DNA of 64,000 nt from Escherichia phage T4_ev151: the sequence record LR597660, one strand, 5' to 3'. The number at the start of each line of letters is the position of its first letter. The stretch's first letter is position 1. Both the position numbers and the translations under genes were made by a program. This document shows positions 1 to 15,883 of the stretch, one piece after another. The notes beneath the pieces are model-generated. The model was given only the letters and a program-made list of their open reading frames with translations. It was not told the origin of the DNA and made no database searches.

Positions 1-425
1 ATAAGAGTAAAGAAATATTTCTTGCCCTGAAATTTTACCGTAGTATCAATATAAAATAAATTTGATTTTTGTAAATTACGTTTAAACCATGCATCACTTA
101 AACTATAAACGCCAAGATAATCATAATCGTCGTTTAAATAACAGACCGTCCATTCAGGAGAAACAAAATCAGTAAATTCAACATCAAAATCGCATGTTAA
201 TAAATGAATTGATTCAATACTGTTAATAAGTATTCCAGGACGTATTAAAGACTTTTTACCTCTAGAAAATCTTCCAGAAAGACTTTCATCAGTTTCATAT
301 GAAGAACCCCAATAATAATTACGTCCTTCTGCCATACGTTTAAGAGCATTTAATAATTGGTCTGGAACATCAACTTGTCTTTGGAATTCTTCAAACATTG
401 AATTGAAATCACTTTGCATTTTCAT
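1..425 (-). CDS. hypothetical protein, partial (C-terminus lies beyond window start); begins MKMQSDFNSMFEEF
   Basis: Open minus-strand frame running off the window edge; ATG at 425-423; not in the supplied ORF track because it is truncated. Confidence 0.4.
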   Translation of the reverse strand, partial: MKMQSDFNSMFEEFQRQVDVPDQLLNALKRMAEGRNYYWGSSYETDESLSGRFSRGKKSLIRPGILINSIESIHLLTCDFDVEFTDFVSPEWTVCYLNDDYDYLGVYSLSDAWFKRNLQKSNLFYIDTTVKFQGKKYFFTL

Positions 426-446
426 TCCTATTTACTCCAAGTAATA

Positions 447-460
447 GGGGCCGAAGCCCC
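447..460 (-). terminator. GC stem-loop GGGGC-UUCG-GCCCC on the minus-strand transcript, after the 467..1060 gene
   Basis: Perfect 5-bp GC stem with UUCG tetraloop read on the minus strand; no clear U-run, so may act as an RNA stability hairpin rather than a terminator. Confidence 0.45.
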
Positions 461-466
461 TTATCA

Positions 467-1060
467 TTATTTCAGAGAATTAATGTATTCCTGAACATCG
501 GCAGAGGTAGTTTCAACCCCAGAAATATTACCGTTAAAGGTTTCAACTCGAGCAAGGGTATCTTCAATATCAACCTTAGTCAGTGCTGCAATTTCAACTA
601 CATCATCGGCAGTACTAATTCCAAGGGCATTTGCTGCACGAGTTTCACGGATATATTCCAATTTAACCGCAAGTTCTTGACGAGCATCATCTAACTCAAC
701 TACTTTCTTGGCGATTTCAATTCGCATTTCAGCATAACCGTCAGCCTTAGTAGTCAACTGCTCAGCTGTTCGACGATATAGTAAACCGAGTTTAGCATGC
801 ATTGTTACATCTTGGCCTTCGGAAAGAAGTTTACGAATTTCACGCTCTTTTGATTCGGCCTGTCGATTCTTTTCGATAACAAGTTCACGAATACGTTTTT
901 CTTCGTTAATAGATTTAACAGAAGCAGTTTTTAGATCTTTAATTTTATCAAGTAGTTTTGCTGCTGCAGCAGTATACTGTTCTTCGACAGATAGATTTTT
1001 AGCCATAGCAGAACCAAGTTTAGTGCGAATAAACTCAACAATTTTCTTCAGTGTGTTCAT
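467..1060 (-). CDS. coiled-coil protein, possibly PspA/IM30-like
   Basis: 197-aa ORF with SD AAGGAA upstream of ATG; highly charged heptad-rich sequence loosely resembling PspA; no search possible. Confidence 0.6.
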
Positions 1061-1131
1061 AGTATTTCCTTAGGTTAATTGAGATTTAAAATCCGTAGGA
1101 GTATAATACTCTATCGTCAAATTATAGGCTC

Positions 1132-1161
1132 ATAATATCTCAATCATGAGCCTGCGTAAAC
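1132..1161 (-). promoter_or_regulatory. T4 early-type promoter (-35 GTTTACG, 17-bp spacer, -10 TATTAT)
   Basis: Minus-strand read AAGTTTACG-N17-TATTAT upstream of the 467..1060 gene. Confidence 0.5.
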
Positions 1162-1422
1162 TTATTTCATATTATTGAAATATTCTTCTGCGATTTCGTC
1201 GTTATCATGGTAAACTTTAGAAGACAGTTTAACATAACCTTCTGCTGTGAACATATTAATCACAACTTTTACAGTATACCACTGACCGTCTTCATTACCC
1301 ATTACTGCGTAAGTTTCAAACATCGGATGATCAGGACCGATAACTTTAATATCATTCACTGTACGACCGAAATCTTCTGAAACGCATTTCATAAAGAAGT
1401 TGAACAGTTCGCCGTAATTATC
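1162..1422 (-). CDS. hypothetical small protein (start trimmed to ATG at 1422, MDNYGELFNFF...)
   Basis: ORF-track N-terminus overlaps an early promoter; internal ATG preceded by GGAGAATGAA SD. Confidence 0.5.
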   Translation of the reverse strand, partial: DNYGELFNFFMKCVSEDFGRTVNDIKVIGPDHPMFETYAVMGNEDGQWYTVKVVINMFTAEGYVKLSSKVYHDNDEIAEEYFNNMK

Positions 1423-1468
1423 CATTTCATTCTCCAAGTTGTTTTCTGTATCAGTAGTTGATAGTTGT

Positions 1469-1498
1469 ATAGTACCATGGAAGAACAGAGATGTAAAC
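1469..1498 (-). promoter_or_regulatory. T4 early-type promoter (-35 GTTTACA, 17-bp spacer, -10 TACTAT)
   Basis: Minus-strand read CTGTTTACA-N17-TACTAT about 45 nt upstream of ATG at 1422. Confidence 0.5.
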
Positions 1499-1621
1499 AG
1501 TTTTGTGAAAAAATTTTTAGGGAATTCTAGGGCAGGGATGGGCAATTAAAGGATAGGATAATATATTATAAAGGGTATAAACTAAATGATGCCTAGAGAG
1601 GTCCAGAAAGGCCTAGATACC

Positions 1622-1647
1622 AAAAAGCCCTATCATTTAGATAGGGA
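1622..1647 (-). terminator. intrinsic terminator hairpin (CCCTATC/GATAGGG stem followed by U-run)
   Basis: 7-bp inverted repeat then UUUUU on the minus-strand transcript, directly after the stop of the 1655..2218 gene. Confidence 0.55.
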
Positions 1648-1654
1648 TTTAAAA

Positions 1655-2218
1655 TTATTTACCTAGTTTAGTTATTATAGCTTCTGCAGCAGCTTTTAGC
1701 TTAGATGCAGTGTTAATACGATTTTTAATTTCAGTATACGCATCGCCAAGAACATCAAGGCTATCAGAATAAACACTTACACTATTGCGTTCGCTATTTG
1801 AAATAGAACCTTTAGTTTTACGATCAAAATCGGTGTACACGTCTTGAAGATCGCGGGCTGCCTTCTTTGCATCATCCAATGCATCAAGAGCTTTATTCAA
1901 AGCATTAACGTATTTTTTGGTGTCGAACATATTCTTAGAAATTTTAACAGGTGCACGTTCAGGAGTAGCTAATACAGATTTAGGAACCTGAGCGCCAGAT
2001 GCCAATTTCTTAGAAATTTTGAAAAATGCTTTATTGAATTTATTTTCTTGACTCATTGTAAAAGAACTATTATCGATGTTGTACATTTCAATAGCTTTAG
2101 CTTTCCACTTAAGAAAATCGCCGCGGTCTTTTGGGTCCAAGTGGAAGAATACTTTAGTAAGATCTGCTTCAGATGGTAATTTTGCTGCTTCGGTTAAAAA
2201 TTCTGCATAGGTTTTCAT
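1655..2218 (-). CDS. internal (capsid-packaged) protein with N-terminal capsid-targeting sequence MKTYAEFLTE (IPIII-like)
   Basis: N-terminus matches the T4 internal-protein CTS consensus MK(T/S)Y(Q/A)EF(I/L)(A/T)E, which ends in the gp21 prohead-protease cleavage motif; SD AAGGAT upstream. Confidence 0.65.
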   Translation of the reverse strand: MKTYAEFLTEAAKLPSEADLTKVFFHLDPKDRGDFLKWKAKAIEMYNIDNSSFTMSQENKFNKAFFKISKKLASGAQVPKSVLATPERAPVKISKNMFDTKKYVNALNKALDALDDAKKAARDLQDVYTDFDRKTKGSISNSERNSVSVYSDSLDVLGDAYTEIKNRINTASKLKAAAEAIITKLGK

Positions 2219-2308
2219 TTAAAATCCTTGAAATAATCTATCGGTTGGTTATTAATTATTTATTACTTTGTTATTATCCGTAACAGCGTTATCCGAGTGA
2301 TTCAAACT

Positions 2309-2335
2309 AAAAAGCCCCAACCTTTCGGTCGGGGC
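2309..2335 (-). terminator. intrinsic terminator ending the tRNA/stable-RNA transcription unit
   Basis: 9-bp stem (one G-U) with GAAA loop followed by UUUUU on the minus-strand read GCCCCGACC-GAAA-GGTTGGGGC-UUUUU. Confidence 0.6.
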
Positions 2336-2336
2336 T

Positions 2337-2652
2337 AAGCCTTGCGGCAACCTTGTCGGGGTTCCACCTGCTAAGGCAAGTGTTTGTACGAAACGCCGGG
2401 ATTCGAACCCGGTTATCAAGCAGTTGACGCTACTCAATATTTTTAAAAGGCCATATCTCGACCATATCCGAACGTTCCGTCAAAAACGCTACTCGGCTTA
2501 CGGCAAAGATATTTCCTCGAATCGATAATTCGGTGCGCCGTTTCTGCTGTGATATAAGGGGGCATTAACAAAACATAAAGATTTATTAATGCCAGTCCTT
2601 AAACAGGGAACATCAGTCCGACGACTTGCCGGTAGCGACCCGGCTTCTTGTC
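2337..2652 (-). ncRNA. stable RNA region downstream of tRNA-Arg (T4 species 1/species 2 rnaC/rnaD-like), containing a tRNA-like T-arm
   Basis: No credible CDS; lies between tRNA-Arg and a strong terminator, as in T4 tRNA subcluster II; GGGTTCGAATCCCGG T-arm motif near 2396-2410 and several stem-loops; exact RNA ends not determined. Confidence 0.4.
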
Positions 2653-2729
2653 TGGTCGAGGCAGAAGGATTCTAACCTTCAACCTACGGATTAGAAATCC
2701 GTTGCTCTATACAATTGAGCTATGCCCCG
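2653..2729 (-). tRNA. tRNA-Arg (anticodon TCT), CCA encoded
   Basis: Manual cloverleaf: acceptor CGGGGCA/TGCCTCG, D-stem GCTC/GAGC, anticodon stem ACGGA/TCCGT with loop TTTCTAA, T-arm GAAGG-TTAGAAT-CCTTC. Confidence 0.85.
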
Positions 2730-2732
2730 TAA

Positions 2733-3398
2733 TTAAAATTTCATTTTTCGACCTTTAAACCATCCTTCTGGAATTGGGTCAGTTTTCTTAATACGTTTAG
2801 AAACTTTTTCATCTAATGAATGAATCCACATCATACCAAATTGGGAATTCTTTTCGCCCTGTTGATGTTTATTTCTGGCGTGAGATTCTTTCATTTTATT
2901 AATAGTTTCAGGAGTATGGGTCTTACCCAAGAAAGATTTAGTATTTAAAAATTTCTCTCTATACTTAGGATTATCCCAAAGCCGTTTAAACCTTTCTGAA
3001 CCCATTTTACGATATTTTTCTTTAAGGTCTGGGTCGTTCTCAAATCTGGTTTTAAAAGCGGCAGCTCCTTTTAAGGAAGCTTCTTTCTTTTTATCCAAAT
3101 ATTCTTTAGTGTTTAAATGGTCCCAACCACCTTCACCACCTAATTTCAAATTATAAACATCAGGGCGCTTTAAAAACTCTTCAGTCACAATATTCTTTTC
3201 TGACTCAAACATAGAGGTTTTATCGTCAAAGAACTCTAATATTTCTTTAGAAAAATTTTCTATACCATACTTATCTTGGGCTCTTTTTAATAATTTACCA
3301 GAACCCATATATCCATCATCTAAATTTTCGGTAGAATGAGCGCCTATATAGATTTTATTATTAATTTTATTTGTTATTTTATAAATGTAATGGAACAT
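2733..3398 (-). CDS. segB: GIY-YIG homing endonuclease SegB-like, within the tRNA cluster
   Basis: 221-aa ORF; N-terminal IYKITN...KIYIGAHST...[14 protein letters not shown] module; position between tRNA subclusters as T4 segB; SD AGGAGA upstream. Confidence 0.85.
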   Translation of the reverse strand: MFHYIYKITNKINNKIYIGAHSTENLDDGYMGSGKLLKRAQDKYGIENFSKEILEFFDDKTSMFESEKNIVTEEFLKRPDVYNLKLGGEGGWDHLNTKEYLDKKKEASLKGAAAFKTRFENDPDLKEKYRKMGSERFKRLWDNPKYREKFLNTKSFLGKTHTPETINKMKESHARNKHQQGEKNSQFGMMWIHSLDEKVSKRIKKTDPIPEGWFKGRKMKF

Positions 3399-3439
3399 AA
3401 ATATCTCCTATTTCTAAGAGTATTTATGTTCTCAAAATA

Positions 3440-3511
3440 TGGCCCTGGGTGGAATTGAACCACCATCTGGCGATTATGAGTCGCTTGCTTGAACCTTCCA
3501 GCTACAGGGCC
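3440..3511 (-). tRNA. tRNA with anticodon CAT (T4 tRNA-Ile-like, lysidine-type, or Met)
   Basis: Manual fold: acceptor GGCCCTG/CAGGGCC, anticodon loop CTCATAA, T-arm GGTGG-TTCAATT-CCACC; CCA not encoded. Confidence 0.75.
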
Positions 3512-3517
3512 TTGATA

Positions 3518-3590
3518 TGCTGATTGACGGAATCGAACCGCCGACATCCTCATTACAAGTGAGGTGCTCTACCTACTGAGCTAAATCAGC
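3518..3590 (-). tRNA. tRNA-Thr (anticodon TGT)
   Basis: Manual fold: acceptor GCTGATT/AATCAGC, D-stem GCTC/GAGC, anticodon stem CCTCA/TGAGG with loop CTTGTAA. Confidence 0.85.
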
Positions 3591-3597
3591 GAAATTA

Positions 3598-3684
3598 CGG
3601 AGGCGATAGGATTTGAACCTATGAGTCGCCGGAGCGACTGCCGGTTTTCAAGACCGGTGCATTAAACCACTCTGCCACGCCTCC
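3598..3684 (-). tRNA. tRNA-Ser (anticodon TGA), long variable arm
   Basis: Manual fold: acceptor GGAGGCG/CGCCTCC, anticodon stem CCGGT/ACCGG with loop CTTGAAA, long variable arm, T-arm ATAGG-TTCAAAT-CCTAT. Confidence 0.85.
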
Positions 3685-3686
3685 AG

Positions 3687-3760
3687 TCTCCGTGGCAGGA
3701 TTTGAACCTACGACATTCTGCTCCCAAAGCAGACGCTCTACCAAACTGAGCTACACGGAG
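3687..3760 (-). tRNA. tRNA-Pro (anticodon TGG)
   Basis: Manual fold: acceptor CTCCGTG/CACGGAG, D-stem GCTC/GAGC, anticodon stem TCTGC/GCAGA with loop TTTGGGA; CCA not encoded. Confidence 0.85.
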
Positions 3761-3772
3761 TAAATTAAATTT

Positions 3773-3844
<72 letters not shown>

Positions 3845-3850
3845 AAACTT

Positions 3851-3937
3851 TGGTACGAGAAGTGGGACTCGAACCCACAAGGAAATCATTCCGCAGCATT
3901 TTAAGTGCTGTGCCTTTACCAATTTGACCATTCTCGC
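3851..3937 (-). tRNA. tRNA-Leu (anticodon TAA), long variable arm, CCA encoded
   Basis: Manual fold: acceptor GCGAGAA/TTCTCGT, anticodon stem CAGCA/TGCTG with loop CTTAAAA, T-arm GTGGG-TTCGAGT-CCCAC. Confidence 0.85.
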
Positions 3938-3943
3938 GCTATA

Positions 3944-4576
3944 TTATTTATTACGTGAAAAAGACTGTTCTATCAATTCTGGACACTTTCGTTCTATCCA
4001 TTTTCTAGCTTTTTGTGGGCTTATACCTATTATTTTAGCAGCTTTACTAACCCATCCAAATTTAGAATAATCGATTTTAACTAATTCTTCGTAAATTTCA
4101 TCAGTTAAAATCTTTTCATTAATATTTACCAGTAAATGATATAATTTATTATCATTAGCAATTTTAATGAATCTTTTATAGTTTCCGCCTTTACTTAAAC
4201 CTAATGAAGTAATTGCAGATGATATAGTAGCCGAATTTAATAGTGCGTTTAAAATTTCTTCATCACTAACATTATAACGCTTTCTATTATTTTTAATATT
4301 TTTACCAGCAAAAGTATCAGTTTGCGAATGGCAATTTGGGCATAATAATCTTAAATTTGATTTAAGATGATTTTTGTTATTTCCATCAATATGGTCTAAT
4401 TGTAGAACAATATGCTTATTTTGCCATTTTGAAATTTTACAAATTGCACACTCATATGGAAAAATATTTTCTTTTATTATTTTGTCTTTCAGCTTTCCTG
4501 TACTAAAATTTGGATGTTTTCCTTCAAAAATTTCAGCTAATTTAGTATCCATAATATGATTCCCAATTATTAACAA
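3944..4576 (-). CDS. HNH homing endonuclease, abutting the 5-prime end of the tRNA cluster
   Basis: 210-aa ORF with HNH core LDHIDGNNKNH...NLRLLCPNCH and an upstream CxxC pair; stop codon 6 nt from tRNA-Leu. Confidence 0.8.
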   Translation of the reverse strand: MLIIGNHIMDTKLAEIFEGKHPNFSTGKLKDKIIKENIFPYECAICKISKWQNKHIVLQLDHIDGNNKNHLKSNLRLLCPNCHSQTDTFAGKNIKNNRKRYNVSDEEILNALLNSATISSAITSLGLSKGGNYKRFIKIANDNKLYHLLVNINEKILTDEIYEELVKIDYSKFGWVSKAAKIIGISPQKARKWIERKCPELIEQSFSRNK

Positions 4577-4662
4577 AGGCTCTCAAACAAGAACCCTTGA
4601 TGATAGAGGGTATTAATCAGTGCGGTATGAGTTAATAATAACAAATAATTCTTAAAGCATAT

Positions 4663-4950
4663 TTACCATTTATGATGATACATACTTACGATGCATTCAA
4701 GACCCAAAGAATTCTTGAAAATATCATATTCAAGAGGACCTTTTTCTGTTTCAATAAAGAAATCAAAATTTACTGTGTTAAATTTACGGTCTTCCTTCAC
4801 CAATTTAACTTGAGAAGATGAACGGTCAATATAAACCTTTTCAACTTCAAAATATGTTAAAATGCCATAATCATCAATCAAGGCTTTAGCTGCTTCTTGA
4901 TCATATTTATATCCATTTTCAATGGACGATACTTTAGCATAAAGAATCAT
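4663..4950 (-). CDS. hypothetical protein (ip-locus accessory ORF)
   Basis: 95-aa ORF in the gene-dense minus-strand early block, 2 nt after the stop of the upstream ORF. Confidence 0.5.
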   Translation of the reverse strand: MILYAKVSSIENGYKYDQEAAKALIDDYGILTYFEVEKVYIDRSSSQVKLVKEDRKFNTVNFDFFIETEKGPLEYDIFKNSLGLECIVSMYHHKW

Positions 4951-4952
4951 TA

Positions 4953-5336
4953 TCAGCCTTCATCAACAATAGTATGAGTGTGGGCATTTACAATTTGCCA
5001 CCAATCAAAGCGATTAGAACCATACATCGGTTTGTTTTCATTTTCTTTGATAATATCACGGAGTTCATCTTCAGTAGCGGCTTTCGCGATTAAATCAGCA
5101 TATCCACCACAAGGATAATAATTATCACCTGCAAAAAGTAAAAAATTTGGTGTAATATTATTGAACTCTTCAAGAGTAATAACTGTTCCTGATGGTAGTT
5201 GAACAATCTCTACATAGTTATATCCTAATTTTTGAGCAGCATCTACTGCTTCAAGCAGGGTATCATGAGCCCGTCCTATTTGGCAATTTGGCTTTTTAGA
5301 TGGATTAGCCTGATAATCCGCGTACACTTTATACAT
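4953..5336 (-). CDS. hypothetical protein (ip-locus accessory ORF; start trimmed to MYKVYADY)
   Basis: ATG at 5336 preceded by AGGTGA SD, 1 nt after the upstream stop; the longer track ORF starts with a non-ATG codon overlapping the upstream gene. Confidence 0.5.
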   Translation of the reverse strand: MYKVYADYQANPSKKPNCQIGRAHDTLLEAVDAAQKLGYNYVEIVQLPSGTVITLEEFNNITPNFLLFAGDNYYPCGGYADLIAKAATEDELRDIIKENENKPMYGSNRFDWWQIVNAHTHTIVDEG

Positions 5337-5337
5337 T

Positions 5338-5523
5338 CTATTCACCTTTAGAAATTTTATCCATAACAATAGCGATTAAACCAATTAAAAATGCTACTAC
5401 AAGTGAAAACACATTTTCTGCTGTAGTCAATAATCCACATATAAATCCAACAAACATTGAAAAACTAAAAGCGGAAGCAGAAATTGCAATAGCAACATTT
5501 CGAATTAATTCACAACGTTTCAT
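5338..5523 (-). CDS. small hydrophobic (probable membrane) protein
   Basis: 61-aa ORF, predominantly hydrophobic, with its own early promoter and GAGGAGAAT SD. Confidence 0.5.
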   Translation of the reverse strand: MKRCELIRNVAIAISASAFSFSMFVGFICGLLTTAENVFSLVVAFLIGLIAIVMDKISKGE

Positions 5524-5551
5524 TTTATTCTCCTCAGTAGTTGATAGGGTA

Positions 5552-5581
5552 ATAATATCACCACCCTATCTAAAAGTAAAC
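5552..5581 (-). promoter_or_regulatory. T4 early-type promoter (-35 GTTTACT, 17-bp spacer, -10 TATTAT), embedded in a GATAGGG/CCCTATC inverted repeat
   Basis: Minus-strand read AAGTTTACT-N17-TATTAT upstream of the 5338..5523 ORF. Confidence 0.5.
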
Positions 5582-5815
5582 TTATTTTTTACGAAAAATT
5601 GATTTATATTTATCAGCCCATTTCTCGATGACTTTTTCTGGTCCATAGATAACAAAATAATCACCAAACTCTTCACCACCGAGCTGACCGAAATTATCTA
5701 ATGCATCACGAAGAACTCCATGAGGCATTTCGCCCATTTTATCTTTCTTACCAATGTAAATAAACTCAACTTTTACATCAGCAGCTTCAGCAATAAATTC
5801 TTGATACGTTTTCAT
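5582..5815 (-). CDS. ipI: internal protein I-like (capsid-targeting sequence MKTYQEFIAE followed by a small mature domain)
   Basis: ATG at 5815 with GGAGAATAAA SD; N-terminal 10 residues match the T4 IP capsid-targeting sequence; position immediately downstream of 57B as in T4; track ORF is longer through a GTG start. Confidence 0.7.
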   Translation of the reverse strand: MKTYQEFIAEAADVKVEFIYIGKKDKMGEMPHGVLRDALDNFGQLGGEEFGDYFVIYGPEKVIEKWADKYKSIFRKK

Positions 5816-5851
5816 TTTATTCTCCAATTTCACATTTGTTTTGATAGGGTA

Positions 5852-5881
5852 ATAGTATCACTACTAAAACCCCGTGTAAAC
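5852..5881 (-). promoter_or_regulatory. T4 early-type promoter (-35 GTTTACA, 17-bp spacer, -10 TACTAT) upstream of ipI
   Basis: Minus-strand read AAAGTTGTTTACA-N17-TACTAT; shares the extended AAAGTTGTTTACA motif with the promoter at 63888..63917. Confidence 0.55.
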
Positions 5882-5893
5882 AACTTTGTGAAA

Positions 5894-6578
<685 letters not shown>

Positions 6579-6579
<1 letters not shown>

Positions 6580-7304
6580 TATAGTACCTTTAGTGTATTT
6601 TTAATTTTAGAAAAAAGTTCTTCAAGAGAACCATCGTTTGTAATTACTAAATCGCCATCACGAATTGGCAATCCAGCTTCTGTAATATGTGTATCATTGG
6701 ATTTTTGACCAGGACGAACTACATGAATTACTGTAGCACCCATCGCCCTAGCCGCATCCATTTCATGATCTTGACGAGTATCAGGAACGATATAATAATC
6801 ATAACCTGAGTTAAATTTATCAAGATAATCTAAAGCAAATAATTTTACCCAATACATGCGGTCGAAGTTATTAACAATCAAATCCGTACCTAGGGCTTGC
6901 ATCAGACGACGGACTGACCATTGATCTTCAATATTATTTATAACGTCAATAATCTTGTTAAATGCTACGGAATTAACTGATTCTTGTCCTTCGTCATCAA
7001 AAACAAACACATCCTTAATTGGGCTTTTACCATTAAGATAGCAAAATGCTTGTTCCATAATCGTGATTACTTCTGATTTAGTCAGATTTAAATTAGTCTC
7101 ACGATCATAGTCAATTCCTTCAAACTCTTTACGAGTTAAGCAAGGATAGTCAGTGTTTGCTGCAAATACTCCCCATGCATAAGCCAATGCATCCTTAATA
7201 GGACCAGCAAGTTGGTATTTAACTGCAGAATAATTGCTCATGATAAAATCAGCAGTAGTATCTTTTCCACTACGCTTTACACCGCTTAAAAAGATTAGTT
7301 TCAT
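6579..7304 (-). CDS. 1: gp1 deoxynucleoside monophosphate kinase
   Basis: P-loop LSGVKRSGKDT near the N-terminus; start trimmed to ATG at 7304 (SD GAGGAG), giving 241 aa as in T4 gp1. Confidence 0.9.
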
Positions 7305-7353
7305 GTGTTTCTCCTCAAATTTAATTAAGATTATAACACACAAAACTGAAGCA

Positions 7354-7884
7354 TTAAACTTCTGCTATAATTTTTCCATCTTTTTCTACTTGAAAATAGG
7401 TGTAAGGAATCGTTGCTGTACATACTAAAGCCGGATCTGAATCTTCTGTGTAGCTAAATTCTACTTCAGATAGGTCAGAAACCCAAGGCTTATAAAAATT
7501 TATTGACATCACGATTTCAGTTTTGCTATTATCTAAAATGTAAAGCGTAATGTACTCAGGACCTGTTTTTTGGGCAGTATTTTCACCTGTAAGATAGTTA
7601 CTAGTTCCTAGCATCCATTCATACATTCCTATCCATGATTTAAGTTCTTCATCAACTATAAATCTCACAATGAGTGGATCATACTCGAATGTAACACCTG
7701 GACGTTGTGCTCGGCCCAGTCCAAACGGCCCAGTCACGGTATCAGTAACAGGTATTCTAATTCCTGGAATAGGAACTGACTGAGCATTTAAAGTAAAAGC
7801 AGATGTAGTATTACTATGTGGTATTGATACTACAAAGTTAGTTGTATTTGCTTGGTTAAAAATTTGTTGCAGAGCTTGCGACAT
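7354..7884 (-). CDS. 3: gp3 tail tube terminator / sheath stabiliser
   Basis: Position between genes 1 and 2; start trimmed to ATG at 7884 (SD GAGGAA), giving 176 aa as in T4 gp3; the track ORF begins at a TTG. Confidence 0.8.
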   Translation of the reverse strand: MSQALQQIFNQANTTNFVVSIPHSNTTSAFTLNAQSVPIPGIRIPVTDTVTGPFGLGRAQRPGVTFEYDPLIVRFIVDEELKSWIGMYEWMLGTSNYLTGENTAQKTGPEYITLYILDNSKTEIVMSINFYKPWVSDLSEVEFSYTEDSDPALVCTATIPYTYFQVEKDGKIIAEV

Positions 7885-7990
7885 ATATTCCTCATAATGC
7901 TTTATAACTGTTAGTGGTATAATGGGTCTAAGTCCCTTCCATTCAATTCCATTTAGAACAAACAACAGAAAAGAATGGAAGATAATAGAA

Positions 7991-8815
7991 TTAGATATTT
8001 GACCAGACTTTGTTTGCAGAGAAACGTTTTCCTTTTGAGTAGAAGCTTTGGAGTGGCATCAACACAACGTTCGCCCAGTCTTTCGGGGCGATTTCAACAA
8101 GGCTACCCATAATATTACCAGGTATATATGCCTTAATCATTTGGTCTGCACCCCTAAATCCTTTCACTTGACTCCAATCAATTTTTAATTTCGTTTTATT
8201 AGTAATAGTAGGTGTATTTGCATATTGCTTTAAAAGCTCTTCTAGAAACTGTTGACGAGCTTTAGGTGGAATATAGTGCAAGTTTAATCCGTACATTAAA
8301 TTATGCTTACCTAAACCAAGGTAAATTATCAAAGGAAATTTATCCCAGTAAGGAAGAGTTTCCTTGTGTTTAGCATCATAAGCAAAAGCATATATTCGTC
8401 CCGGCTGCGGGCGAACAACTTTATGTCCTTTTACTTGCTTAATAGTTTCAGCAAACCACTTTCTGGTTTTATTATTAATTGCTGCACCTTCATTACGAAT
8501 TTTATCACGCAATGTTTGTCTGAATGAATTTATCATAAGCAGTTGTCTTTCTTGCTTATTGAGTTTATTCATTGGTTTTGATTCAAGCTTTTGAATCTTT
8601 TCAGCTGTTTTAATTCCTGAAGCATATTTTGACATTGCTGAAGTAAACGTAGAGTATTTGATTCCTCTTTCTTCAGCAAATTGCTTTCCTGTCATTCCTT
8701 TTGCTTTGGCCTTTTTATATTCAAGACCTATCTGAATCCATTTCTTTTCGTTTAATGATTGCTTAACCTTTGGAACTTGGGGAGTGCTTTCATTAATTAT
8801 TTGAAAAATAGCCAT
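7991..8815 (-). CDS. 2: gp2 DNA end-protector protein
   Basis: 274-aa ORF, length and synteny identical to T4 gp2. Confidence 0.8.
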
Positions 8816-9267
8816 TATGCCCCCTTAAAGCCAAGAGCTCGTAATCCATCTTCTGTTAGAATTCTAAATTTTATTCCACGCTTTTCAGCTAAAGATTGCG
8901 CTGCTTTCCATTTGTCAGTATTAACTGAATATGTATAAATTTCATTCATAAATCTTTTCTTCGCTGCGGTTGTTAGATGTGCTGGTTTAACTGGTGGTTG
9001 TGTTTCTTTTTTAGGTTTTATTTCAATAAAAAATTCTTGTCCAGAAGAATCTTTCATCCAAATATCCATGAAGTATCTACGTTTTTTCCCTTCTGCATTA
9101 CAAAAATAAGGAATTACTGCTGTTTCACTACCCCATGCAATAATTTCTGGATTTTTATCTAACCATTCAAAAAAGAATTTTTCCCAATTTGATCTATACG
9201 TAATTTTTTTAGGGTCACCTCTATACTTTGATATATTTTTAGGAACCCATTTTCCAGAATATGCCAT
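8815..9267 (-). CDS. 4: gp4 head completion protein
   Basis: 150-aa ORF, synteny with T4 gene 4; late promoter upstream. Confidence 0.8.
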
Positions 9268-9314: not shown

Positions 9315-9905
9315 ATGCTCTTTACATTTTTTGATCCGATTGAATATGCGGCCAAAACGGTGAATAAAAACGCGCCGACTATTCCTATGACAGATATTTT
9401 TAGAAACTATAAAGACTATTTTAAACGCGCTCTTGCGGGATACCGCTTACGTACTTATTATATCAAAGGTTCACCACGTCCGGAAGAATTAGCAAATACT
9501 ATATATGGAAATCCACAGCTGTATTGGGTTTTATTGATGTGTAATGATAATTATGATCCATATTATGGATGGATTACTTCACAAGAAGCTGCTTATCAAG
9601 CATCTATACAAAAATACAAAAATGTGGGTGGAGACCAAATAGTATATCATGTGAATGAGAACGGTGAAAAATTTTATAATTTAATATCATACGATGATAA
9701 TCCATATGTTTGGTATGATAAAGGCGATAAAGCTAGAAAATATCCTCAATATGAAGGAGCACTTGCTGCGGTCGATACGTATGAAGCTGCTGTTCTTGAA
9801 AATGAAAAACTTCGTCAAATAAAAATAATAGCAAAATCAGACATCAATTCATTTATGAACGACCTTATACGTATAATGGAGAAATCTTATGGAAATGATA
9901 AGTAA
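9315..9905 (+). CDS. 53: gp53 baseplate wedge protein
   Basis: 196-aa ORF, length and synteny as T4 gp53; SD GGAGGG. Confidence 0.85.
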   Translation: MLFTFFDPIEYAAKTVNKNAPTIPMTDIFRNYKDYFKRALAGYRLRTYYIKGSPRPEELANTIYGNPQLYWVLLMCNDNYDPYYGWITSQEAAYQASIQKYKNVGGDQIVYHVNENGEKFYNLISYDDNPYVWYDKGDKARKYPQYEGALAAVDTYEAAVLENEKLRQIKIIAKSDINSFMNDLIRIMEKSYGNDK

Positions 9906-11619
9906 TAACCTTAATTGGTTTGTTGGTGTTGTTGAAGATAGAATGGACCCATTAAAATTAGGTCGTGTTCGCGTTCGTGTGGTTGGTCTGCATCCACCAC
10001 AAAGAGCACAAGGTGATGTAATGGGTATTCCAACTGAAAAATTACCATGGATGTCAGTTATTCAACCTATAACTTCTGCAGCAATGTCAGGAATTGGAGG
10101 TTCTGTTACAGGGCCAGTAGAAGGAACTAGAGTTTATGGTCATTTTTTAGACAAATGGAAAACTAACGGAATTGTCCTTGGCACGTATGGTGGAATAGTT
10201 CGCGAAAAACCTAATAGACTTGAAGGATTTTCTGACCCAACTGGGCAATATCCTAGACGTTTAGGAAATGATACTAACGTATTAAACCAAGGCGGAGAAG
10301 TAGGATATGATTCCTCTTCTAACGTTATTCAAGATAGTAACTTAGACACTGCAATAAATCCCGATGATAGACCACTATCAGAGATTCCAACCGATGATAA
10401 TCCAAATATGTCAATGGCTGAAATGCTTCGCCGTGATGAAGGATTAAGACTAAAAGTTTATTGGGATACCGAAGGATATCCGACAATTGGTATTGGTCAT
10501 CTTATCATGAAACAGCCAGTTCGTGATATGGCTCAAATTAATAAAGTTTTATCAAAACAAGTTGGTCGTGAAATTACTGGAAACCCAGGTTCTATTACAA
10601 TGGAAGAGGCGACGACTTTATTTGAGCGTGATTTGGCTGATATGCAACGGGACATTAAATCACATTCTAAAGTAGGACCAGTCTGGCAAGCTGTCAACCG
10701 TTCTCGTCAAATGGCGTTAGAAAATATGGCATTTCAAATGGGTGTTGGTGGTGTAGCTAAATTTAACACAATGTTAACTGCTATGTTAGCCGGAGATTGG
10801 GAAAAAGCATATAAAGCCGGTCGTGATTCATTGTGGTATCAACAAACAAAAGGCCGTGCATCCCGTGTTACCATGATTATTCTTACCGGAAATTTGGAAT
10901 CATATGGTATTGAAGTTAAAACACCAGCTAGGTCTTTGTCGGCAATGGCTGCTACTGTGGCGAAGTCTTCTGATCCAGCTGACCCTCCTATTCCAAATGA
11001 CTCGAGAATTTTATTCAAAGAACCAGTTTCTTCATATAAAGGTGAGTATCCTTATGTGCATACGATGGAAACTGAAAGTGGGCATATCCAAGAATTTGAT
11101 GATACTCCTGGGCAAGAACGATATAGATTAGTTCATCCAACTGGAACTTATGAAGAAGTATCACCATCAGGAAGAAGAACAAGAAAAACTGTTGATAATT
11201 TGTATGATATAACCAACGCTGATGGTAATTTTTTGGTAGCCGGTGATAAAAAGACTAACGTCGGTGGATCAGAAATTTATTACAACATGGATAATCGTCT
11301 TCACCAGATAGATGGAAGTAATACAATATTTGTACGTGGCGATGAAACTAAGACAGTTGAAGGTAATGGAACTATCTTAGTTAAAGGTAATGTTACTATT
11401 ATAGTTGAAGGTAATGCTGACATTACAGTTAAAGGAGATGCTACCACTTTAGTTGAAGGAAATCAAACCAATACAGTAAATGGAAATCTTTCTTGGAAAG
11501 TTGCCGGGACAGTTGATTGGGACGTTGGTGGTGATTGGACAGAAAAAATGGCATCTATGAGTTCTATTTCATCTGGTCAATACACAATTGATGGTAGCCG
11601 TATAGACGTAGGTTTATAA
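9889..11619 (+). CDS. 5: gp5 baseplate hub subunit with tail lysozyme domain and C-terminal beta-helix
   Basis: 576 aa; N-terminus MEMISNNLNWFVGVVED as T4 gp5; central lysozyme region; C-terminal VxGxxxxx repeats (TVEGNGTILVKGNVTIIVEGNADITVKGDATTLVEGN). Confidence 0.95.
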   Translation: MEMISNNLNWFVGVVEDRMDPLKLGRVRVRVVGLHPPQRAQGDVMGIPTEKLPWMSVIQPITSAAMSGIGGSVTGPVEGTRVYGHFLDKWKTNGIVLGTYGGIVREKPNRLEGFSDPTGQYPRRLGNDTNVLNQGGEVGYDSSSNVIQDSNLDTAINPDDRPLSEIPTDDNPNMSMAEMLRRDEGLRLKVYWDTEGYPTIGIGHLIMKQPVRDMAQINKVLSKQVGREITGNPGSITMEEATTLFERDLADMQRDIKSHSKVGPVWQAVNRSRQMALENMAFQMGVGGVAKFNTMLTAMLAGDWEKAYKAGRDSLWYQQTKGRASRVTMIILTGNLESYGIEVKTPARSLSAMAATVAKSSDPADPPIPNDSRILFKEPVSSYKGEYPYVHTMETESGHIQEFDDTPGQERYRLVHPTGTYEEVSPSGRRTRKTVDNLYDITNADGNFLVAGDKKTNVGGSEIYYNMDNRLHQIDGSNTIFVRGDETKTVEGNGTILVKGNVTIIVEGNADITVKGDATTLVEGNQTNTVNGNLSWKVAGTVDWDVGGDWTEKMASMSSISSGQYTIDGSRIDVGL

Positions 11620-11622
11620 ATA
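11615..11622 (+). promoter_or_regulatory. T4 late promoter TATAAATA upstream of the GIY-YIG gene
   Basis: Exact TATAAATA overlapping the gene 5 stop, 17 nt upstream of the endonuclease ATG. Confidence 0.5.
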
Positions 11623-11638
11623 ATTCCAGAGGTGAATT

Positions 11639-12505
11639 ATGAAAAAATCTAACACAGTTCAATTTAGATACATATATAAAACAACCGTTACTAATCCGAA
11701 AGGATTAGTACGGGTTTATATTGGTAAACATGAATCTAGATATTTTGATTTAGAAAATGATAAGTATAGAGGTTCCGGTGATTATATTAAAAAGATACGT
11801 AATAAACCTGGTTATAAAATAGATTTTGAAATAATTGAATTTGTTTCTACTTATGAAATTCTCAATTCAAGAGAAAGATATTGGATTTCGAAATATAAAT
11901 CATCTGATATTCTATGTACCAATATAAAATCCGGCGGTGATGGTTTTTCATCCGAAGATTTGAAGAGAATGTGGTCTAATCCTGAATATAGGAAAGCTCA
12001 ATTGAAGGCATTAGCTAAATCAACGTCAACTAAAGAATTTTCAGAGAAAATATCTAAAATAAACAAAGAAAGATGCGCATCGCCAGAATATCGAAAGAAA
12101 ATGAGTAATGCGATGAAAACTGCTTTTGAAAATGATCCAACATTAAAAATTCGTATTTCTAATACCGTTAAATCTTTATGGAAATCCGATGAATATAGAA
12201 ACAAATTAATCAATCATCCAGGAAAAATAGAAGGAACGAAACAATCATGGAATGATCCTTTGATAAGAAAATCGAGATTAGATGCTAGAAATAAAAAACT
12301 AAGATCAGTTGAACCTTGGATTAGTATAGAAAAAGTCAAAAAACTTTGGGAGGATTTGGGAAAACCACATCCACAGAAATACAAATGGTTTAGAGAAAAA
12401 GCAATTGAACACGACCTCCCGGATGTAAGTTATAACGCAATTTTAAAAGCGTTGAAAAAATGTGATTATAAATTTACATCATTAGAGAATTCAACAATTG
12501 GCTAA
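11639..12505 (+). CDS. GIY-YIG homing endonuclease (Seg-like) with C-terminal NUMOD-like repeats
   Basis: N-terminal FRYIYKTT...VYIGKH GIY-YIG module; four repeats of a W/CxxPEYRK motif in the C-terminal half; inserted between gene 5 and 5.1. Confidence 0.8.
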   Translation: MKKSNTVQFRYIYKTTVTNPKGLVRVYIGKHESRYFDLENDKYRGSGDYIKKIRNKPGYKIDFEIIEFVSTYEILNSRERYWISKYKSSDILCTNIKSGGDGFSSEDLKRMWSNPEYRKAQLKALAKSTSTKEFSEKISKINKERCASPEYRKKMSNAMKTAFENDPTLKIRISNTVKSLWKSDEYRNKLINHPGKIEGTKQSWNDPLIRKSRLDARNKKLRSVEPWISIEKVKKLWEDLGKPHPQKYKWFREKAIEHDLPDVSYNAILKALKKCDYKFTSLENSTIG

Positions 12506-13034
12506 TATACTTCCAATGAGCGCTGATTTAGGAGAATCCATGGAAGGTTCTTCTATCGACGTCACCTTTACCGCTCAATTAGAAACAGGTGAAACGTTAG
12601 TATCTATAAATATAACTAGTTACGAAGAAACTCCTGGGGTTTTAGTAGAAGAAAATCGCTTATATGGAACATATGAATCTGTATTTGGTTTCGGAAATGA
12701 CGCGTTGAAATATCGTTTAGGCGATGAATTTAAAACTGCTGCTTCATGGGAAGAACTTCCTACTGATTCTGATACTCAGTTGTATTTGTGGAAAGCTCCT
12801 CAAAATCTCCAGAAGACATTCACTTACGAAGTAACATTAATATATGACTACCAAGAACAAAGTGAATCTGGAGGTTCTGGCAGTAATTCTAGGTCATCTT
12901 CTGATACTACTGAACCAACGGATCCTCCTGCTCCAGTAAGAAAAACTCTCGTTAAAAATTATACTAAAACTATAGTTGGAAATTGGAGTCGTTGGGCTAA
13001 TAAGCTGAGAGAATATGTCTATGCAAGACCATAA
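12498..13034 (+). CDS. 5.1: gp5.1-like conserved hypothetical protein
   Basis: 178-aa ORF between gene 5 and the PAAR gene 5.4; true start may be a downstream ATG. Confidence 0.5.
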   Translation: MANILPMSADLGESMEGSSIDVTFTAQLETGETLVSINITSYEETPGVLVEENRLYGTYESVFGFGNDALKYRLGDEFKTAASWEELPTDSDTQLYLWKAPQNLQKTFTYEVTLIYDYQEQSESGGSGSNSRSSSDTTEPTDPPAPVRKTLVKNYTKTIVGNWSRWANKLREYVYARP

Positions 13035-13611
13035 ATATTTTTATTTGTATTCAATAACTAATAAAACAACAGGAAAAATTTATGTAGGCGTCCACAAAAC
13101 TTCAAATTTGGATGATGGGTATATGGGTTCTGGCGTTGCCATTAAAAATGCCATTAAAAAATATGGCATAGATAATTTTTATAAGCATATTATAAAATTC
13201 TTTGAATCTGAAAAAGCTATGTATGACGCAGAGGCAGAAATAGTCACAGAGGAATTTGTTAAATCTAAGAAAACTTATAATATGAAACTAGGCGGTATCG
13301 GTGGCTTCCCAAAACATAACACAGCGGGTGCTAAAAATGGATTTTACGGTAAATCTCATTCGCGTGAAACTAGATTGAAAATTAGCATTAAATCGTCTAG
13401 AAAAAGAGGGCCTAGAGGGCCTAGAGGTAAAACTCTGAAGATGTGTGGCGCCAATAACCCAAGGTATGGCAAAATAGCCCCTAATGCTAAATCTGTTATT
13501 ATCAACGGCGTTTTATATAAAAGTATTAAAATCGCAGCTAAAGCTCTTAATATAAATTATAGTACCTTAAAGGGGCGAGTTAAAGCGGGGTATTATAAAT
13601 GTCAGGATTGA
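13015..13611 (+). CDS. GIY-YIG homing endonuclease (segB/segD-family paralogue)
   Basis: [22 protein letters not shown]...LDDGYMGSG motif set shared with the ORFs at 2733 and 45534. Confidence 0.85.
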
Positions 13612-13892
13612 GTTATGATAAGTGTGTTACTGCTGGCCATGAAGCGTGGCCTCCAACAGTTGTGAATGCTACGCAAAGTAAAGTATTCACTGGAGGAATT
13701 GCTGTTCTAGTAGCAGGCGATCCAATTACAGAACATACAGAAATTAAAAAGCCATATGAAACACATGGCGGAGTGACACAACCTAGAACTTCTAAGGTAT
13801 ATGTCACTGGAAAGAAAGCTGTTCAAATGGCTGATCCAATATCATGCGGTGATACTGTGGCTCAGGCATCATCTAAAGTATTCATTAAATAG
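13599..13892 (+). CDS. 5.4: gp5.4 PAAR-repeat spike tip protein
   Basis: 97-aa ORF, same length and position as T4 gp5.4. Confidence 0.85.
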
Positions 13893-13900
13893 GATTTAAA

Positions 13901-15883
13901 ATGGCAAATACCCCTGTAAATTATCAATTAACAAGAACAGCAAATGCTATTCCCGAGATATTCGTCGGGGGTACGTTTGCTGAAATAAAACAAAACCTCA
14001 TTGAATGGCTTAATGGCCAAAATGAATTTTTGGATTATGATTTTGAAGGCTCAAGATTAAACGTTCTGTGCGACCTTTTGGCTTATAATACATTATACAT
14101 TCAGCAGTTTGGTAATGCTGCTGTGTATGAAAGCTTTATGCGTACTGCTAACTTACGAAGTTCAGTTGTTCAAGCTGCACAAGATAATGGATATTTACCT
14201 ACTTCAAAATCCGCTGCGCAGACCGAAATTATGTTAACATGCACCGACGCATTGAATAGGAATTACATTACTATTCCTCGCGGAACTCGCTTTTTAGCAT
14301 ATGCAAAAGATACTTCTGTTAATCCATATAACTTCGTTTCTACCGAAGACGTTATTGCTATTCGTGATAAAAATAACCAATATTTTCCGCGTTTAAAATT
14401 GGCCCAGGGACGTATAGTAAGAACTGAAATCATTTATGATAAATTAACACCTATTATCATTTATGATAAAAATATTGATAGAAACCAGGTTAAATTATAC
14501 GTTGATGGAGCAGAATGGATTAACTGGACAAGAAAGTCAATGGTTCATGCTGGTTCTACATCGACAATTTACTACATGCGTGAAACTATTGATGGAAATA
14601 CTGAATTCTATTTTGGTGAAGGTGAAATTTCTGTTAATGCTTCTGAAGGAGCTTTGACCGCTAATTATATCGGAGGTCTTAAACCTACTCAGAACTCTAC
14701 GATTGTTATTGAGTACATCAGTACTAATGGTGCTGACGCGAACGGAGCAGTCGGATTTTCATACGCAGATACATTAACAAATATAACTGTCATCAATATT
14801 AATGAAAATCCAAACGATGACCCAGATTTTGTTGGGGCAGATGGTGGCGGTGATCCAGAAGATATTGAGCGTATTCGCGAATTGGGTACTATTAAACGCG
14901 AAACCCAGCAACGCTGCGTAACTGCGACTGACTATGATACATTCGTTTCAGAGAGATTCGGTTCTATTATTCAGGCAGTTCAAACTTTCACTGATTCTAC
15001 TAAACCTGGGTATGCATTTATTGCTGCTAAACCTAAATCAGGTCTGTATTTAACTACTGTACAACGTGAAGATATTAAAAATTATCTCAAAGACTATAAT
15101 TTAGCTCCTATTACGCCATCAATTATTTCTCCTAATTATCTTTTTATTAAGACTAATTTAAAAGTCACATATGCTTTAAATAAACTGCAAGAATCCGAGC
15201 AGTGGCTTGAAGGTCAAATAATTGATAAAATTGATCGCTATTATACCGAAGACGTAGAAATTTTTAACTCGTCTTTCGCTAAATCTAAGATGTTGACATA
15301 TGTAGATGATGCAGATCATTCTGTCATTGGTTCATCAGCGACTATTCAAATGGTTCGTGAAGTACAAAACTTCTATAAAACGCCTGAAGCGGGTATTAAA
15401 TACAATAATCAAATAAAAGATCGTTCTATGGAATCTAATACGTTTTCATTTAATTCTGGACGAAAGGTTGTAAATCCTGATACTGGTTTAGAAGAAGATG
15501 TATTATATGATGTTCGTATAGTATCAACAGACCGAGATTCTAAAGGAATTGGTAAAGTTATTATTGGTCCATTTGCTTCTGGCGATGTTACAGAAAATGA
15601 AAACATTCAGCCATATACAGGCAATGATTTTAATAAATTAGCAAATTCTGATGGACGCGACAAATACTATGTTATCGGTGAAATAAATTATCCGGCTGAC
15701 ATGATTTATTGGAATATCGCTAAAATTAATTTAACATCTGAAAAATTTGAGGTTCAGACTATTGAATTATATTCTGACCCAACCGATGATGTTATCTTTA
15801 CCCGTGATGGTTCACTGATTGTATTTGAAAATGATTTACGTCCGCAATACTTAACTATCGATTTGGAGCCTATATCACAATGA
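13901..15883 (+). CDS. 6: gp6 baseplate wedge protein
   Basis: 660 aa, length and synteny as T4 gp6. Confidence 0.9.
   Translation: MANTPVNYQLTRTANAIPEIFVGGTFAEIKQNLIEWLNGQNEFLDYDFEGSRLNVLCDLLAYNTLYIQQFGNAAVYESFMRTANLRSSVVQAAQDNGYLPTSKSAAQTEIMLTCTDALNRNYITIPRGTRFLAYAKDTSVNPYNFVSTEDVIAIRDKNNQYFPRLKLAQGRIVRTEIIYDKLTPIIIYDKNIDRNQVKLYVDGAEWINWTRKSMVHAGSTSTIYYMRETIDGNTEFYFGEGEISVNASEGALTANYIGGLKPTQNSTIVIEYISTNGADANGAVGFSYADTLTNITVININENPNDDPDFVGADGGGDPEDIERIRELGTIKRETQQRCVTATDYDTFVSERFGSIIQAVQTFTDSTKPGYAFIAAKPKSGLYLTTVQREDIKNYLKDYNLAPITPSIISPNYLFIKTNLKVTYALNKLQESEQWLEGQIIDKIDRYYTEDVEIFNSSFAKSKMLTYVDDADHSVIGSSATIQMVREVQNFYKTPEAGIKYNNQIKDRSMESNTFSFNSGRKVVNPDTGLEEDVLYDVRIVSTDRDSKGIGKVIIGPFASGDVTENENIQPYTGNDFNKLANSDGRDKYYVIGEINYPADMIYWNIAKINLTSEKFEVQTIELYSDPTDDVIFTRDGSLIVFENDLRPQYLTIDLEPISQ

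Follow-up and report, generated by a model that had tools for sequence, protein, structure and literature searches.

How two homing-endonuclease genes come to lie side by side among the structural genes of a phage is the question raised by a stretch of Escherichia phage T4_ev151 (sequence record LR597660). The stretch comprises 64,000 nucleotides (nt), is referred to as a whole as the window, and is a segment of a Tequatrovirus (T4-like) genome. Between gene 5 and the PAAR gene 5.4 it carries two free-standing GIY-YIG genes, one on either side of gene 5.1. This arrangement had been described in an earlier note made from the sequence; both open reading frames (ORFs) are indeed intact, and the first (ORF1) starts and the second (ORF2) ends at exactly the positions given there, 11639 and 13611. 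We compared the interval among ~570 phage records that carry the region (counts are approximate owing to database redundancy). In our judgement, the two genes are probably independent free-standing homing elements of the T-even 'Seg' kind, one of them the known gene segC (ORF2) and the other, ORF1, uncharacterised.

ORF1 replaces the end of gene 5

Comparison of the gene 5-5.4 interval with T4 and its T-even relatives, a check proposed in the earlier note, defined the insertion boundaries of both elements. For ORF1, the empty alleles of T4 and T2 run ATTGATGG ATCGAGGATTGAC ATTGGCTAA TATACTTCC, whereas occupied alleles run ATTGATGG TAGCCGTATAGACGTAGGTTTATAAATAATTCCAGAGGTGAATT-ATG...ORF1...TTCAACA ATTGGCTAA TATACTTCC. 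What the element brings in place of 13 nt at the end of gene 5 is thus a heavily recoded gene 5 tail, the motif TATAAATA and ORF1 itself. The original end of the gene survives on the far side of the element: ORF1 terminates in ATTGGCTAA (12497-12505), and the ATT GGC TAA in it corresponds to the last two codons and the stop of a T4-type gene 5.

Ten of the last 24 nt of gene 5 differ from T4/T2, compared with 3-5% in the gene body (binomial P ~1e-9, for an interval chosen after seeing the data). Nearly all of these changes are synonymous, including full codon-family switches (TCG to AGC, AGG to CGT). At the protein level, only an exchange of I for V and an extra C-terminal Leu are seen, with gp5 of the window ending in ...IDGSRIDVGL and that of T4 and T2 in ...IDGSRIDIG. 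A Dhakavirus has the T4-type tail in conserved form, as largely does an Enterobacter phage, and we therefore take it to be the ancestral, highly conserved sequence, as would be expected for a homing target.

ORF1 has also been lost again. In four records (ESh36, 215Ecol030PP, LF73P1 and LF73P3), the recoded tail runs straight into the final 40 nt of ORF1. This remnant is the product of an 852-nt deletion between two direct copies of the repeat TTATAAAT, located in the window at 11614-11621 and 12466-12473. In these alleles the gene is gone and the flank, which is presumably resistant, has been retained.

ORF2 is segC

The earlier note placed the second gene in the segB family. This assignment has to be corrected, as ORF2 is the orthologue of T4 segC and the true segB lies elsewhere in the window, among transfer RNA (tRNA) genes (2733-3398). 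ORF2 and T4 SegC are identical at 196 of 198 amino acids (aa) (99%; the differences are P2S and E20G) and are encoded at the same genomic position, with the same insertion point and the same overlap of 20 nt with gene 5.1; a further 13 nt overlap with gene 5.4. They also share their domain set, which consists of a GIY-YIG domain (aa 8-96), NUMOD3 (aa 105-124) and a C-terminal I-TevI-type DNA-binding helix-turn-helix (aa 152-191). Pfam matches were obtained for SegE_GIY-YIG (27.4 bits) and NUMOD3 (28.3 bits, cut-off 20.4), while the DNA-binding motif scored slightly under its cut-off. SegC and SegB are 55% identical, but over the 96-aa catalytic domain only, and their C-terminal halves cannot be aligned.

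segC has been described as a mobile free-standing GIY-YIG gene, a promoter-less cassette with its site at the 5.1/5.3 junction; its 20-bp overlap with 5.1 is recorded in the Edgell review, and cleavage of an endonuclease-lacking allele near the insertion site has been reported for SegC (PMC2988022). It is a known element and by itself adds nothing new. The difference from T4 is that ORF2 shares its interval with a second endonuclease gene, which is missing in T4.

The insertion itself is a clean 564 nt at the 5.1/5.4 junction, and the empty site reads GGCCATAAATGTCAGG, with a single copy of ATAAAT. In T4-type segC alleles, 8-12 of the last 33 nt of gene 5.1 differ, compared with ~2% in the body of 5.1, and the window carries this T4-segC-type variant tail in the last ~30 nt of its gene 5.1 (13004-13030). 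A second segC lineage, present in LH2, CJY920 and SP21535, has the same insertion and differs by 10 aa. With ACG in place of its first ATG, it starts at the second ATG. This lineage was found in only ~5 records, 3 of which also carry ORF1.

The two elements are distributed independently

Neither gene is fixed among the relatives, a finding that the earlier note would have counted against its proposal had it been otherwise. ORF1 is present in 32 of the ~570 records, 29 of them at a nucleotide identity of at least 97.6% and 3 divergent at 82%, and segC (at least 95% identity) in ~37. An empty T4-type gene 5/5.1 junction occurs in 531 of 570 records, at an identity of at least 99% in 459. Only four records, those of Manna, LH2, CJY920 and SP21535, have both genes, and ~500 have neither. 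Most ORF1-bearing records (28 of 32) are without segC, and no association between the two genes was detected (4 doubles observed versus 2.1 expected, P=0.15).

The double genomes differ among themselves. Salmonella phage Manna is the closest database relative of the window over 11000-14200 (98.9% identity) and, like the window, combines a type-A ORF1 with a T4-type segC, yet ~10 sites differ between their 5.1 genes. LH2, CJY920 and SP21535, on the other hand, carry three different ORF1 haplotypes together with the second segC lineage, and ORF1 and segC haplotypes alike have been reassorted with respect to the sequences that flank them. These haplotype combinations show, at the level of sequence, that the two genes were brought together at least twice independently. 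Repeated invasion or recombination accounts for this pattern better than inheritance as a single block. An attempt to read clean T4-like versus T6-like parental tracts in the window failed, the region being finely mosaic.

From the presence of two endonuclease genes in one interval, the earlier note had suggested repeated homing into this site. This can be upheld in that two homing-type elements are present. They are, however, different elements at different sites ~0.5 kb apart (gene 5/5.1 and 5.1/5.4), and their distributions are independent.

ORF1 encodes a Seg-like protein under purifying selection

The ORF1 protein is 100% identical to that of an ORF in T6 and ACG-C40. It is annotated in T6 as 'seg-like hypothetical protein, T6ncORF142', and in T6 and ~30 other phages the entries read 'hypothetical' or 'seg-like'. 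Six seg-like genes of T6 were counted, unnamed, in a 2010 survey (PMC2993671); our literature search on the T6 ORF1 returned nothing specific and no experimental characterisation.

The protein consists of a GIY-YIG domain (~aa 9-102, nt 11663-11944), a region of helical repeats (aa 105-224, nt 11951-12310) and a three-helix C-terminal part (aa 225-288). It matches PHROG 314 'homing endonuclease' (E=1e-25), and a profile of ORF1 and 12 database relatives matches I-TevI's catalytic domain (1LN0, E=1.7e-6). The family profile was needed for ORF1, as single-sequence phmmer searches of PDB sequences gave no match for ORF1 or SegC. ORF1 has the beta-beta-alpha-beta-alpha fold by which the GIY-YIG superfamily is recognised; the AlphaFold model of the full-length protein is of low confidence (predicted local distance difference test, pLDDT, 63).

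In a joint alignment with I-TevI, SegB and SegC, residues Y13 (YIY), Y27 (YIG), G29, E79 and N95 of ORF1 fall in invariant columns and correspond to Y6, Y17, G19, E75 and N90 of I-TevI. Y13, Y27, E79 and N95 are also invariant across the ORF1 family. The catalytic Tyr/Tyr/Glu/Asn set, the absence of which from either ORF would have spoken against the earlier note, is present in both ORF1 and ORF2.

The middle third of ORF1 is helical and contains about six repeats that follow the pattern W/F/C-x-x-[PD]-E/x-Y/L-R-x-K (also given as W/F-x-[ND]-[PD]-x-Y/L-R). These had been called NUMOD-like. Helical repeats do exist, but NUMOD3 (Pfam PF07460) did not match ORF1 at any listed E-value up to 10, so that the term is plausible rather than demonstrated. 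Two distant relatives of ORF1 carry NUMOD3 at the aligned positions, and the ORF1 repeats may be degenerate NUMOD3-like helices.

ORF1 is under purifying selection. Compared with the F2 variant, the ratio of nonsynonymous to synonymous substitution rates (dN/dS) is 0.10, and compared with GADU22 it is 0.05; it is low also across the catalytic half. The reading frame was intact in 9 of 9 genomes checked. The 82%-identical variant of F2 (L006, 2501-3364) is itself mosaic. Its codons 1-160, encoding the nuclease domain and the first repeats, are saturated at synonymous sites relative to the window (proportion of synonymous differences, pS, 0.73-0.91), whereas pS is far lower (0.17-0.26) for codons 160-288, a pattern suggestive of recombination at the level of domains or of a shared DNA-binding half.

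In its overall architecture it is ORF1, rather than ORF2, that resembles SegB. ORF1 and SegB align over 193 aa (E=2e-12), covering the catalytic domain and the repeats (FENDPxLK...LWxxxxYRxK), and ORF1, SegB and SegC share the motif YIG-x-H...Y-x-GSG. Nevertheless, ORF1 is only 30% identical to SegB of T4/T6, is 67 aa longer, has an insertion in a hairpin and ends in a different C-terminus. Its gene lies in a structural-gene cluster, whereas segB lies among tRNA genes. Since SegB recognises the tRNA T-psi-C motif, the target of ORF1 must be a different one. With I-TevI (1LN0, 1MK0), ORF1 shares the catalytic-domain fold, the residues Tyr, Tyr, Glu and Asn, and a modular build in which an extended DNA-binding region comes after the nuclease domain. 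In contrast to I-TevI, neither ORF1 nor SegC is encoded in an intron, both are without the Arg27/His31 helix segment and the Zn finger, and identity is ~25-31%.

A candidate late promoter precedes ORF1

The late promoter that the earlier note described upstream of the first gene has a counterpart in the sequence. A T4 late-promoter consensus motif, TATAAATA, lies on the sense strand 17 nt before the ORF1 ATG, and is followed by the Shine-Dalgarno sequence GAGGTG at 11629-11634. The motif is kept in the 82%-identical F2 variant and missing from ORF1-less alleles. As promoter evidence, the motif alone is suggestive. Scans for sigma-70-type promoters and terminators gave nothing notable. A hairpin masking the ribosome-binding site, as found at some T4 endonuclease genes, was considered and rejected; the fold upstream of ORF1 was no better than that of shuffled sequence (z = -0.49).

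A second perfect TATAAATA lies inside gene 5.1 (12605-12612, plus strand), upstream of segC and 5.4. It might serve late transcription of the downstream genes.

Homing as the likely origin of the interval

Both genes stand free between conserved genes and are present in some close relatives and missing in others, as is typical of Seg elements. Preferential inheritance with co-conversion of flanks is predicted for such elements, and indirect signs of it may be seen in the recoded flanks that travel with the gene and in the mosaic haplotypes. A close parallel is offered by SegF and SegG of T4, which show intronless homing with flank co-conversion and are free-standing enzymes that cut the endonuclease-lacking allele in a neighbouring gene, the donor differing at the target (PMC2988022). 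ORF1, as placed at the gene 5 tail, would be arranged on the same principle. Cleavage activity has been shown for SegF and SegG, whereas for ORF1 it is deduced from the sequence; in addition, segF and segG are promoter-less cassettes (PMC2988022), while ORF1 has a TATAAATA motif of its own.

On this basis, the following course of events can be proposed. ORF1 would be transcribed late from its own TATAAATA motif, and segC is expressed without a promoter of its own. During mixed infection, the ORF1 protein would cut ORF1-less phage genomes, likely at or near the highly conserved end of T4-type gene 5, GGATCGAGGATTGACATTGGCTAA. With an ORF1-bearing genome as the template for repair of the break, ORF1 together with its flanks would then be copied over to the recipient (intronless homing). 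The replacement tail, being recoded synonymously, would keep gene 5 functional and probably also shield the carrier from cutting.

An extended version of this reading goes further, and we offer it tentatively, as a possibility on which we would not rely. ORF1 would be an active Seg endonuclease that targets the codons of the extreme gp5 spike tip and spreads by overwriting this tip with a recoded version one residue longer. In genomes with double occupancy, the spike tip, gene 5.1 and the start of the PAAR gene would form a composite block of ~2 kb that could be moved by a cut of either enzyme, and the remnants would be resistant empty sites.

Several observations weigh against reading ORF1 as an active Seg endonuclease protected by its recoded tail. 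ORF1 scores 13.6 bits against Pfam GIY-YIG (PF01541), under the cut-off of 22.6. Its first hairpin contains a 5-residue insertion, so that the Tyr-Tyr spacing is 4-5 residues longer than usual, and it has Thr where Tyr is usual before the conserved Asn. In Foldseek searches of the PDB, full-length ORF1 returned noise only, and no GIY-YIG match was obtained for either model. In ORF1, a gap of 6 residues stands in place of the I-TevI helix segment that holds R27 and H31, and no residue aligns with Arg27. The same gap is present in SegB and SegC, and since these active enzymes also do without the segment, it need not speak against ORF1 activity. DNA cleavage and homing by SegB were shown experimentally (PMC2330249). 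The TATAAATA motif, in turn, occurs 21 times in the window, versus 10.2 expected by chance. Furthermore, Seg enzymes can cut hundreds of base pairs from their insertion site, so that recognition may take place elsewhere than at the recoded tail. Finally, the second segC lineage adjoins an unrecoded T2/T6-type 5.1 tail. The idea that the recoded 5.1 tail serves segC as self-protection is weakened by these LH2-type alleles; as their tail is unaltered, recoding of 5.1 is not required for occupancy of the segC site. It may suffice that the insertion splits the site.

Part of these observations would also be expected if ORF1 were a defunct or domesticated relic, that is, a non-cutting DNA-binding or regulatory protein carried passively or mobilised in trans by segC breaks. 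Besides the low Pfam score, the hairpin insertion and the Thr-Asn pair, the presence of ORF1 in only ~6% of records is compatible with this explanation, and trans-homing is documented in T4, where mobE mobilises the defunct I-TevIII (PMC2988022). We nonetheless consider a relic unlikely. None of the Tyr, Tyr, Glu and Asn residues varies within the family, and dN/dS of 0.05-0.10 includes the catalytic half. Near all-synonymous recoding of the gene 5 tail is a prediction for self-protection from an active nuclease, and segC cannot account for the spread of a gene that occurs without it in 28 of 32 records.

Still less probable is that ORF1 and segC are ancestral in the gene 5-5.4 interval and were deleted in most lineages, the patchiness resulting from loss and ordinary recombination rather than from homing. 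Deletion does occur, as the four remnant records attest, and T-even genomes are highly mosaic in this region. However, where deletion is known, a recognisable scar is left and the recoded tail is still there, whereas the common empty allele has no trace of ORF1 and has a different gene 5 tail, conserved into another genus. The shuffling of ORF1 and segC haplotypes relative to the flanks and the mobility of SegC in the literature (PMC2988022) likewise speak for homing.

Very improbable is a third alternative, in which the endonucleases are kept mainly for the benefit of the phage, through exclusion of the spike/PAAR alleles of co-infecting competitors or through enhanced recombination or amplification close to oriE, which in T4 coordinates lies ~330 bp upstream of the point where ORF1 is inserted. 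In its favour, SegB of T6 promotes segmental amplification of anti-defence loci (PMC13096335), and marker exclusion by Seg enzymes is established (PMC2988022). On the other hand, the sequence bears no sign of a benefit. Strong positive selection on the phage is also made less likely by frequencies of only ~6% for each gene and by the loss that ORF1 has undergone. Such a role would, moreover, be compatible with the homing mechanism rather than a true alternative to it.

Genomic surroundings

The features of the interval and its neighbourhood are listed in Table 1. For gene 5.1, the ORF list had a TTG start at 12498; in T4 and T6 the annotated start is the ATG at 12540, with AGGAG in front of it. 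In T2 (L004, AP018813.1, 8233-8768), gene 5.1 is annotated as two overlapping coding sequences. It measures 494 nt there versus 495, a 1-nt deletion that reflects a frameshift or a sequencing error. A small repEA ORF (window 11015-11182, minus strand) and oriE (~11285), both annotated in T4, lie inside gene 5, with oriE ~330 bp upstream of the ORF1 insertion point in T4 coordinates.

Table 1 Features of the gene 5-5.4 interval and related loci, in window coordinates
Feature	Position	Strand	Remarks
segB, 221 aa	2733-3398	-	Pfam GIY-YIG above cut-off; between tRNA-Arg and tRNA-Met(cat)/Ile, as in T4
Gene 53	9315-9905	+	
Gene 5, baseplate hub / tail lysozyme spike	9889-11619	+	Pfam Gp5_OB, lysozyme, Gp5_C
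Recoded gene 5 tail brought by the ORF1 element	11595-11616	+	Tail comparison with T4/T2
TATAAATA, T4 late-promoter consensus motif	11615-11622	+	Shares nt with the extra Leu codon (TTA) and with the stop codon of gene 5 (TAA, 11617-11619)
ORF1, T6-type Seg-like free-standing GIY-YIG gene, 288 aa	11639-12505	+	
ORF1 3' end surviving as 40-nt remnant in ORF1-deleted phages	12466-12505	+	Second TTATAAAT repeat at its start
Gene 5.1, 164 aa, function unknown	12540-13034	+	T4 and T6 annotation; PHROG 1168
ORF2 = segC, 198 aa	13015-13611	+	T4 SegC identity, position, Pfam
segC insertion limits	13031-13600	+	Direct ATAAAT repeats 13031-13036 and 13595-13600
Gene 5.4, PAAR spike-tip protein; downstream limit of the interval	13599-13892	+	Pfam PAAR_motif, E=9e-10
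Gene 6	from 13901	+	

The tRNA cluster around segB comprises seven tRNAs on the minus strand (2653-2729 and 3440-3937). An HNH endonuclease gene (3944-4576, minus strand; PHROG 14736, E=6e-124) abuts tRNA-Leu and is the second free-standing endonuclease gene of this cluster. At the position of the HNH gene, T2 has tRNA-Gln (L004, 579-652), which was not found within 1-9000 of the window. Further along, a Hoc-like head decoration gene (43088-44794, minus strand) encodes 568 aa; T4 Hoc is considerably shorter, and extra immunoglobulin-like repeats are suggested for the protein of the window.

Implications for T-even phages

None of this would surprise a specialist. The locus is of value for its well-defined, easily testable candidate and for the series of alleles that nature provides, empty, occupied and remnant. 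ORF1 now has a precise insertion boundary, a candidate recognition sequence (at least 99% identity in ~460 records) and candidate natural resistant alleles, namely those with the recoded tail with or without the gene. For phage engineering, mixed infections may overwrite the spike-tip region at the ORF1 site. If ORF1 is active, it would help to explain local marker exclusion around gene 5 in T6-type crosses, and it would present, in compact form, a case of an essential structural gene receiving a substitute end from an endonuclease element. Should the extended reading of a spike-tip-targeting ORF1 be true, then invasion, occupancy and loss with immunity would all be visible in one phage population.

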